Position numbers and translations under genes: made by a program. Of a stretch of DNA of 64,000 nt, positions 4,255 through 4,848 are shown piece by piece; position 1 is the first letter of the stretch, and each line of letters opens with the position of its first letter. The stretch is taken from assembly GCA_036644995.1 (NCBI GenBank), contig JAVXOZ010000009.1, positions 3,121 to 67,120 of the forward strand, given 5' to 3'. Origin of the DNA: Clostridiales bacterium. GTDB lineage: Bacteria; Bacillota; Dehalobacteriia; UBA7702. A model generated the notes under the pieces. That model worked only from the letters and a program-made list of their open reading frames with translations. It made no database searches and had not been told where the DNA came from.

Positions 4255-4425
4255 ATTTTCACCTACTTTGTTGTTTTATTCTATTTTACCCTGTTTTGTG
4301 ATATGAAACAAGGTATTTTTTTACTCTATTTTGGTATAATCTTTATCAATTTAAGTAATTTACAAAATAATATGAATTTATTTCAAAACCAAAACATATT
4401 GCAGCCAATAAACATTATATTTTAT

Positions 4426-4588
4426 CAGATTGTCAAAAAACATAGTTTTTTGGCAAGATATCAGGCTGTTAAGAAAGACTTAGATTCGGTAAAACTCTCT
4501 GAGCAGCGGCTGCTTATGTACCTAAATGTACATAAGCAGTGGATGGGAAAGGTATTTTTGCCGAATATCAGACTTTATCAACAGCCTG
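4426..4588 (+). repeat. copy 1 of ~162-bp foldback repeat family; flanked by 13-bp direct duplication 'cattatattttat' (4413-4425 and 4589-4601)
   Basis: About 90% identical to copies at 6261, 8402, 52337 and 52525; begins 'cagattgtcaaaaaacatagttttttggcaagat', ends 'atcagactttatcaacagcctg'; apical hairpin is a perfect palindrome in this copy ('ctgcttatgtac/gtacataagcag'). Confidence 0.8.
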
Positions 4589-4590
4589 CA

Positions 4591-4848
4591 TTATATTTTA
4601 TAAAGATACCATCTGTGTTCTTTCACATCATAGCGGAGCACAATAACTTGTTCGCAACCACCAAGCAAGCAACGGCAAAAAAAGTTTATCATAATTCGCC
4701 CAACCACTTTTTGCTCCTCTGTACCTTGTAGTTCTAAATTTATTTTTATGTTCTCACCGTTTTCTTCCAAGCAGCAGGCAATTGGTTTAATATTGCCGTT
4801 TTGGTCACAAACAGCGTATACTTTTATAGGATTCATAACAATTTTCAA
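4591..4848 (-). CDS. small hypothetical protein (85 aa), immediately downstream of the UmuC-like gene
   Basis: ORF only; Cys-rich; its last codons read through the right-hand duplicated palindrome of repeat copy 1; could be spurious. Confidence 0.25.
   Translation of the reverse strand: MKIVMNPIKVYAVCDQNGNIKPIACCLEENGENIKINLELQGTEEQKVVGRIMINFFCRCLLGGCEQVIVLRYDVKEHRWYLYKI

Follow-up and report, generated by a model that had tools for sequence, protein, structure and literature searches.

A short, foldback-forming element is present in five copies in the 64,000-nt stretch of Clostridiales DNA analysed here (hereafter the window) and in five more copies in a separate 20-kb region of the same genome (L026). 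[quoted passage not shown] The observed basis of this reading consists of the copies themselves, their exact ends, the locus-specific duplications that flank them, two empty sites, the absence of coding potential, and a composite in which two copies enclose one hairpin and share an outer duplication. The original prediction, made from the letters of the window, had described a non-autonomous element with long, dyad-symmetric target duplications and a preference for hairpins or terminators, and this description is backed by the empty sites, by the duplication of a 34-bp terminator hairpin in L026, by the fact that no transposase, integrase or reverse transcriptase was seen near the copies, and by the missing Rfam match.

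Copies, ends and fold of the element

Five full copies were located in the window by nhmmer and a covariance model, all of them on the + strand. The copies, together with the three repeats that make up the first of them, are as follows.

4426..4588, +: copy 1, full form, 163 bp; covariance model score 165 bits
4426..4459, +: left terminal repeat of copy 1 (T1), CAGATTGTCAAAAAACATAGTTTTTTGGCAAGAT, including the 12-bp hairpin at 4430-4456
4462..4495, +: internal repeat of copy 1 (T2), CAGGCTGTTAAGAAAGACTTAGATTCGGTAAAAC; direct near-copy of T1 and 5' arm of the foldback
4555..4588, +: right terminal repeat of copy 1 (T3), ...GCCGAATATCAGACTTTATCAACAGCCTG; runs opposite to T1 and T2 and supplies the foldback with its 3' arm
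6261..6422, +: copy 2, between the divergent dinB and zf_Tbcl genes
8402..8563, +: copy 3, more decayed than the other four; the A at its end may just as well open the right duplication
52337..52498, +: copy 4
52525..52686, +: copy 5, nearest to the consensus; 197.9 bits

A 28-nt core of the element has five + strand matches, which start at 4462, 6297, 8438, 52373 and 52561, with an expectation of zero from shuffled sequences. All five same-strand copies of the original prediction were thereby recovered, the coordinates that it had given for the first of them with its flanks (4413-4601) being exact, and folding agrees with its account of a 12-bp hairpin followed by a long imperfect foldback.

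The five copies in L026 likewise share one strand, in their case the minus strand. Taken together, the ten copies measure 134-163 bp, fall into a full form of ~162 bp and a short form of ~134 bp, and are spread over eight loci, with ends that are constant to the base (CAGATTG...CAGCCTR; left CAGATTGTC..., right ...AACAGCCTG). Mean column identity of the five window copies is 82% in an alignment that includes ~30 bp of non-homologous flank on each side, and the ten element-only sequences reach 89%. The short form is devoid of the 28-nt small hairpin and retains CAGATTGT, which is followed directly by T2.

Ungapped comparison of T1 (the left 34 nt) with the reverse complement of T3 gives matches at 20 of 34 positions; in a hand count in which the right end is taken as CAGGCTG, the value rises to 21 of 34, which was reached in none of 20,000 shuffles. 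Both terminal repeats start with CAGRYTGT, and this shared start, combined with the match between T1 and T3, demonstrates that the element possesses imperfect terminal inverted repeats of ~34 bp. The third copy of the end motif, T2, is internal, lies in direct orientation at element positions 37-70, and pairs with T3 to generate the long foldback. The full form folds into a 12-bp 5' hairpin and an imperfect foldback of ~125 nt (-67.9 kcal/mol, z = -9.6).

The top strand folds ~14 kcal/mol better than the bottom strand, an advantage attributable to four to five G-U pairs that are kept in nearly all copies. Among the five window copies alone, no covariation was detected and several pairs are broken. 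Across all ten copies, compensatory double changes occur at four pairs (1-35, 41-160, 83-117 and 97-104), compared with a mean of 1.7 in the shuffle control, where the observed value was reached in 10 of 500 cases; sliding the structure by 1-3 columns leaves 0-2 compensatory pairs. These figures give a faint indication that the single-stranded form, whether RNA or DNA, may matter, and the same covariation would also arise from one master copy or from gene conversion between the arms of the palindrome.

The top strand of all ten copies resides on the locally C-rich strand, the mean GC skew of the + strand being negative in the window and positive throughout L026. This placement hints at an orientation bias relative to replication, as read from GC skew only, which is a weak guide in the window because its sign there goes with the gene strand. 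A weak outward-facing promoter-like match (TTGCCA-16-GACAAT) is found at the left end of the element on the bottom strand, at 4429-4456, 8405-8432, 52340-52367 and 52528-52555 (- strand). It aims at minus-strand genes, namely DUF3786 at copy 1 and a tRNA at copy 3, and is not listed by the scan for copy 2, which has a mutated -35 hexamer.

In another species, nhmmer detected a diverged relative (L010 8047-8290, - strand; E = 3e-5), which shares the middle and the 3' end of the element (TTGCCGNATAYCAGAYTTT...CAGCCT) and contains an additional GC-rich internal stem. A terminator hairpin, AAAGCCACTTTAAAGTGGCTTTT, is located downstream of this relative, with no matching hairpin on the left and no significantly stable fold. 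The covariance model returned no further diverged copies over all loci examined.

Flanking duplications and empty sites

The sequences that border the copies in the window are listed below, each of them on the + strand.

4413..4425, +: left target-site duplication of copy 1, cattatattttat, 13 bp, non-palindromic; also found once at the orthologous site in L029
4589..4601, +: right target-site duplication of copy 1, cattatattttat
6239..6260, +: left palindrome of copy 2, AAACAATAGCATGCTATTGTTT, 22 bp with a 9-bp stem, perfect
6423..6444, +: right palindrome of copy 2, AAACAATAGTATGCTATTGTTT, with one mismatch
8382..8401, +: left hairpin of copy 3, AAGCGATTTCACAAATCGCA
8563..8582, +: right hairpin of copy 3, AAGCGATTTTATAAATCGCA; differs from the left one in the loop alone
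52310..52336, +: left terminator-like hairpin of copy 4, GTGGCAGTTGTATTTTACAACTGCCAT
52499..52524, +: middle hairpin between copies 4 and 5, GGCAGTTGCATTTATGCAGCTGCCAT; stem kept through compensatory changes
52687..52713, +: right hairpin of copy 5, GTGGCAGTTGTATTTTGCAACTGCCAC, followed by ATTTTTATGG; scored as intrinsic-terminator-like

The exact 13-bp direct repeat that had been predicted to bracket copy 1 is thus present at both borders. The repeat of copy 2 can be written as AAACAATAG[C/T]ATGCTATTGTTT (22 bp; AAACAATAGYATGCTATTGTTT) and that of copy 3 as AAGCGATTT[CAC/TAT]AAATCGCA (20 bp with a 7-bp stem; AAGCGATTTNANAAATCGCA), and at copies 4 and 5 a hairpin of 26-27 bp, (GT)GGCAGTTG...CTGCCAY, occurs three times, once on each outer side and once between the two copies. 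In L026, the corresponding arrangements are as follows.

378-511: copy A, short form; 34-bp terminator hairpin AGCCCTTACTRCGG...AGTAAGGGYT on both sides, with a T-run after the right one
6403-6563: copy B, full form; imperfect ~9-bp repeat CATATAGRT with a 2-nt offset on one side
10048-10181 and 9857-10018: copies D (short form) and C (full form), with one hairpin between them; the 7-bp repeat CAAAATA bounds the pair
13111-13270: copy E, full form; a different small hairpin at each end, without a matching repeat

Over the eight loci, the flanking repeats comprise non-palindromic ones of 7, ~9 and 13 bp and whole hairpins of 20, 22, 26-27 and 34 bp, with one locus having none. A complete stem-loop is duplicated foot to foot at four of the eight loci, and a stem-loop abuts an end of the element at six, the extra two being copy E and the hairpin in the middle of the D-C pair. 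Hairpin duplication is therefore a preference and not a rule. The original prediction had held that the duplications of all copies other than the first are palindromes of 20-26 bp, which stands for the window (20, 22 and 26-27 bp) but not for L026, where repeats of 7 and ~9 bp and a locus with none also occur. Extension of the flank tabulation to further copies, a check proposed along with it, yielded locus-specific target-site duplications of 7-34 bp at seven of the eight loci, immediately adjoining the ends of the element apart from the 2-nt offset at copy B.

The search for empty sites, which had been proposed likewise, gave an orthologous site for copy 1 and a paralogous one for copies 4 and 5. 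In L029, which stems from a related species with a DinB protein 68% identical, the gene order of dinB, an open reading frame (ORF) of 85 aa and DUF3786 is conserved, and the end of the 85-aa ORF reads ...GGTATCTTTATAAAATATAAG once, the element being absent; the window sequence minus the element and one repeat reads ...GGTATCTTTATAAAATATAATG. Read on the minus strand, 4413..4425 contains the final codons, stop included, of the 85-aa ORF at 4591-4848. The comparison with L029 thus identifies the 13-bp repeat of copy 1 as the conserved end of this ORF, including its stop codon, which was duplicated by the insertion, leaving the ORF intact. The paralogous site at 7616-7734 (+) is ~76% identical to a sequence made by joining the flank to the left of copy 4 with the one to the right of copy 5. 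It contains one hairpin (7672-7699) and a T-run without any element, whereas the occupied locus contains three hairpins and two elements. No orthologous empty site was obtained for copy 2, as its intergenic region is not alignable between species.

The ~120-bp segment that encompasses this paralogous site occurs twice in the window (7616-7734; 52254-52336 plus 52687-52749) with ~76% identity, the second occurrence being split by copies 4 and 5. It is dyad-symmetric (ATATTTCAG...hairpin...CTGAAATAT) and may represent either another family of small repeats or a terminator module that has been conserved.

The source, recognised through the flanking DinB-like protein as an uncultured Clostridiales bacterium, is represented by a set of population genomes, GCA_036643835.1, GCA_036642995.1 and GCA_036652275.1 being among them (runs SRR25820361-66). 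Copies 1-3 are present in all of the ~10 population genomes sampled, and the copy 4/5 locus is occupied wherever contigs extend to it. Short contigs of the population genomes end repeatedly inside copies of the element, as is expected of a dispersed repeat. At the copy 4/5 locus of one population genome (L018), the centre of the element resembles copy 4 and the 3' end resembles copy 5, the contig ending within the element; the two tandem copies may have recombined, or the allele may hold just one copy. In a related species (L011-L014), each contig ends ~100 bp past dinB in a (GGATAATA)n tandem array, which occupies the last ~60-100 bases, is distinct from the element, and interrupts assemblies at the place where copy 1 lies in the window.

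Coding capacity, database searches and gene neighbourhood

The ORFs that overlap the element belong to no Pfam family and have essentially no homologues, in line with the earlier view that the peptide shared by two of them is spurious. Plus-strand translations of the element found no match in the protein database, and the minus-strand translation found one spurious 57-aa ORF, which pointed to L026. The element is thus non-coding. The copies are set among housekeeping genes, namely those for DinB, gyrase, ABC transporters and cobalamin synthesis, and those for DUF3786, HD-domain, PurH-like and YtfJ sporulation proteins. No transposase, integrase, reverse transcriptase, cas1 or CRISPR array was seen at the loci examined around the copies, which accords with the earlier statement that no transposase, Cas1-like integrase or reverse transcriptase is encoded nearby.

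The Rfam search of the whole window at the gathering threshold produced no match over any copy, and in the region 52200-52800 at E = 10 only chance-level matches appeared (E >= 3.5); the original prediction, too, had recognised no RNA family. Sequence collections were equally uninformative. An exact 20-mer scan of genome contigs gave only six single chance matches, with the rest of the element absent, and no match was found in metagenome contigs by a 24-mer and a degenerate 3'-end pattern or in viral contigs by an exact-pattern scan. Against plasmids and phages, blastn found nothing at E <= 0.01 and only chance matches of 28-30 nt at E <= 10. No partner insertion sequence (IS) with matching ends was found in the genome, metagenome, viral, plasmid and phage collections.

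Several other features were recorded near the copies and elsewhere in the window. A strongly conserved leader lies 5' of the first zf_Tbcl gene (window 6625-6705, +), in which ACTCCTAAA pairs with the ribosome-binding region TTTAGGAGG, with homologues on the minus strands of L010 (9793-9888), L011 (9721-9816), L015 (9730-9825), L028 (413-508) and L029 (320-415). This leader is kept in species whose DinB is only 59-70% identical, has no Rfam match, and may control translation as an element of a type not yet described; no such leader accompanies the second zf_Tbcl paralogue (7049-7142). A LexA box of the Cheo type, TAGAATATTTGTTCTA, is situated at ~6146-6161 just 5' of the dinB-like gene, with TAGAACTTTTGTTCTA and TAGAACATATGTTCT in relatives, and copy 2 lies ~100 bp upstream of this box. 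A pyrrolysine insertion sequence, PYLIS_1 (74.5 bits), at 23409-23508 (+), between the ORFs 22785-23411 and 23469-24188, suggests a methylamine methyltransferase gene that is read through an in-frame UAG, and the organism probably uses pyrrolysine. Two head-to-head divergent cobalamin riboswitches, at 34395-34534 (-) and 34709-34886 (+), precede a large cobalamin operon, and a ZTP riboswitch at 10116-10193 (-) lies upstream of the PurH-like gene at 8900-10072.

Proposed mechanism, alternatives and relation to known systems

In the mechanism proposed for the element, a transposase encoded elsewhere in the genome most likely joins both 3' ends of the element to the target. On each strand, the join would be made at the 5' foot of a stem-loop that has been extruded, and subsequent gap repair would copy the entire stem-loop to both sides of the element, producing the duplications of 20-34 bp; with the ends attacking the feet of the stem-loop, the whole of it would be duplicated. 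At ordinary AT-rich targets, a shorter stagger would give rise to duplications of 7-13 bp. Structure-dependent transposition is suggested by the exact inverted-repeat ends, by a duplication length that tracks the size of the stem-loop, and by the shorter duplications at non-palindromic AT-rich sites; from this pattern we infer DDE-type chemistry, a cruciform target geometry and a transposase acting in trans. The tandem array at 52310-52713 is what would result if one of the duplicated hairpins had received another insertion, or from unequal exchange. The D-hairpin-C arrangement of L026 with its outer 7-bp repeat fits two copies that moved as a composite unit, and the unlike hairpins that border copy E would fit a history of recombination among the copies.

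At the terminator targets (copies 4 and 5 and L026 copy A), the left hairpin has lost its T-run and the right hairpin keeps one downstream. An upstream transcript would, to judge from this layout, run through the element and stop after the right terminator, and 3' untranslated regions are probably rewired as a result. The element also breaks short-read assemblies of this species and generates spurious ORFs. On a broader level, transposition guided by structure and not by sequence is poorly understood, with current knowledge resting on few autonomous elements, mainly IS1630 and IS1272. The element offers many natural insertion sites from which a target rule can be derived, and the partner transposase, if found, would provide a simple system for testing cruciform feet as real targets.

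Several findings weigh against a MITE-like family mobilised in this manner. No transposase or other recombinase was found in ~110 kb of DNA of this species, leaving the mobilising enzyme and the IS family unassigned, and the ends of the element show no meaningful similarity to those of E. coli IS30. Strain-level presence/absence polymorphism, which would point to recent mobility, was not seen among the ~10 population genomes. Copy E of L026 has no matching duplication, and the repeat at copy B is offset and imperfect over ~9 bp. Compensatory changes are found in the central, non-terminal part of the foldback, which a plain MITE model does not need.

These compensatory changes are accommodated by two alternatives, both of which give the fold a function. 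It is unlikely, though worth stating, that a structure-specific integrase of an undescribed type, distinct from the IS30 type, reads extruded stem-loops on one replication strand, with the conserved top-strand fold being a working part of the process or else serving as a functional RNA that has a disabled terminator copy on one side and an intact one on the other; if so, the element would be a hairpin-guided mobile RNA/DNA module and not an ordinary decayed IS. Quite unlikely is a structured small RNA or cis-acting RNA module, expressed by read-through or from a promoter of its own, whose fold is maintained and whose spread is secondary. The ~14 kcal/mol folding advantage of the top strand through its conserved G-U pairs and the four compensatory pairs against a shuffle mean of 1.7 speak for such a module, as does the position of copies 4 and 5 and of L026 copies A and B, which lie in sense orientation just 3' of genes and 5' of a T-run terminator, and the terminator hairpin that follows the diverged copy in the relative. 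Copies 1-3, however, are antisense to neighbouring genes, a sigma-70 scan of the top strand gave no convincing internal promoter, and Rfam yielded no match even at E = 10. Many substitutions break pairs, the window copies alone lack covariation, and gene conversion between the palindrome arms could mimic the compensatory pattern without selection. The module would leave the locus-specific duplications and the empty sites unexplained, and it is compatible with the MITE reading in any case, as MITE transcripts commonly form stem-loops (PMC10969869).

Other explanations concern the mode of insertion. The shared orientation of the ten copies on the locally C-rich strand in two genome regions, the strand-specific fold and the stem-loop preference are what would be expected if a single-strand DNA element of a non-DDE kind, either IS200/IS605-type (moved by a Y1/HUH transposase) or a class C group II intron-like retroelement with insertion sites after terminators, read hairpins on one replication strand. 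Such an element is very unlikely here, given that neither system duplicates its target on insertion, in contrast to the 7-34 bp duplications of the present copies, and that the strand is deduced from GC skew only, which is weak for the window. Insertion of IS200/IS605 occurs 3' of a fixed tetra- or pentanucleotide, whereas TTTAT, TGTTT, TCGCA and GCCAT precede the element, and 162 nt is far below the size of a group II ribozyme, with no intron match in Rfam. The duplications, and 5' bases that differ at every locus, are at odds with a palindrome-associated element derived from IS200/IS605. The original prediction had mentioned a Cas1-like integrase, and a Cas1 or casposase-like enzyme attacking both borders of a palindrome and duplicating it in the fashion of a CRISPR repeat would produce the same geometry, with the alternation of hairpins and elements at 52310-52713 looking array-like. 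Nothing in the analysis supports this idea, which is highly improbable: no cas1 or CRISPR array was seen in the DNA examined around the copies, and what is inserted is in every case this one element, whose inverted-repeat ends are typical of a transposase substrate. Casposon duplications have a fixed length of ~14-15 bp, unlike the variable ones of 7-34 bp observed here. It is just as hard to believe that no transposition took place, and that template switching at hairpin-stalled forks, or recombination, left the duplications as a by-product. The variable duplications do coincide with stem-loops, which are possible fork stallers, and the unlike hairpins of L026 copy E point to exchange between copies; ten copies with base-identical ends and terminal inverted repeats nevertheless point to ends defined by an enzyme and not to microhomology junctions.

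The element is smaller than 500 bp, multi-copy and non-coding, carries terminal inverted repeats, and is flanked by duplications that are single in the empty sites. It thereby resembles bacterial MITEs such as Correia/NEMIS, ERIC, RUP and bcr1, which are small, multi-copy and intergenic, with terminal inverted repeats and flanking direct repeats, and whose transcripts are expected to fold into extended stem-loops (PMC10969869, PMC3184786). In the bacterial MITEs described so far, the target duplication is usually short and constant in length (~2-10 bp), in contrast to the variable duplications of this element, which extend to a whole 34-bp hairpin. Class C group II introns and IS200/IS605 elements share the preference for stem-loops or terminators and possibly a bias towards one replication strand, but they generate no target duplications, and the element has no ribozyme, reverse transcriptase gene, TnpA gene or fixed target tetranucleotide.

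A closer parallel in target choice is provided by IS1272/TnSha1 of staphylococci (IS1182 family), which targets stem-loops, often terminators, without primary-sequence specificity, and replaces or partly deletes the stem-loop without target duplication (PMC4923244, PMC5678879). Stem-loop targeting and a tandem duplication of the left-end repeat are common to IS1272 and the element (PMC4923244, PMC5678879); IS1272 is autonomous and deletes the stem-loop, whereas the element duplicates it. Membership in the IS1182 family fails on this point. The cruciform model put forward for IS1272 includes a pathway of the proposed kind, with a DDE transposase acting on a cruciform and joins at the 5' feet duplicating the whole stem-loop (PMC5678879, Fig. 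13, pathway b).

The mode of duplication is best matched by IS1630 of Mycoplasma fermentans, a member of the IS30 family that was reportedly first described by Calcutt et al. in 1999. Its target duplications are given as 19-26 bp in one source (PMC2853133) and as 16, 23, 25 and 26 bp, with terminal repeats of 27 bp, in another (PMC3317919). ISMhom-1, a related mycoplasma member of the IS30 family, has repeats of 6-15 bp and inserts downstream of genes or at gene ends with ORFs preserved (PMC7648426), as copy 1 does with the stop codon of the 85-aa ORF. Intergenic or gene 3'-end insertion and variable target duplications, many of them inverted repeats, are common to IS1630, ISMhom-1 and the element, in which the duplications of 20, 22, 26-27 and 34 bp span whole stem-loops and the others measure 7-13 bp. 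The IS1630-type elements are autonomous, 1.2-1.4 kb in length, and possess an IS30-type transposase and 27-bp terminal repeats, whereas the element is 134-162 bp, non-coding, and found in Clostridiales. It does not constitute a new category, since insertions that duplicate whole inverted repeats, rare as they are, have been on record from 1999 onwards and models of the geometry already exist; what is new is a miniature non-coding, apparently high-copy version in Clostridiales, the broader spread of its duplication lengths (7-34 bp) and its three-repeat architecture, along with hints of a strand-specific fold and of an orientation bias. By analogy with these systems, its best classification would be that of a MITE-like element acting in the manner of IS1630.

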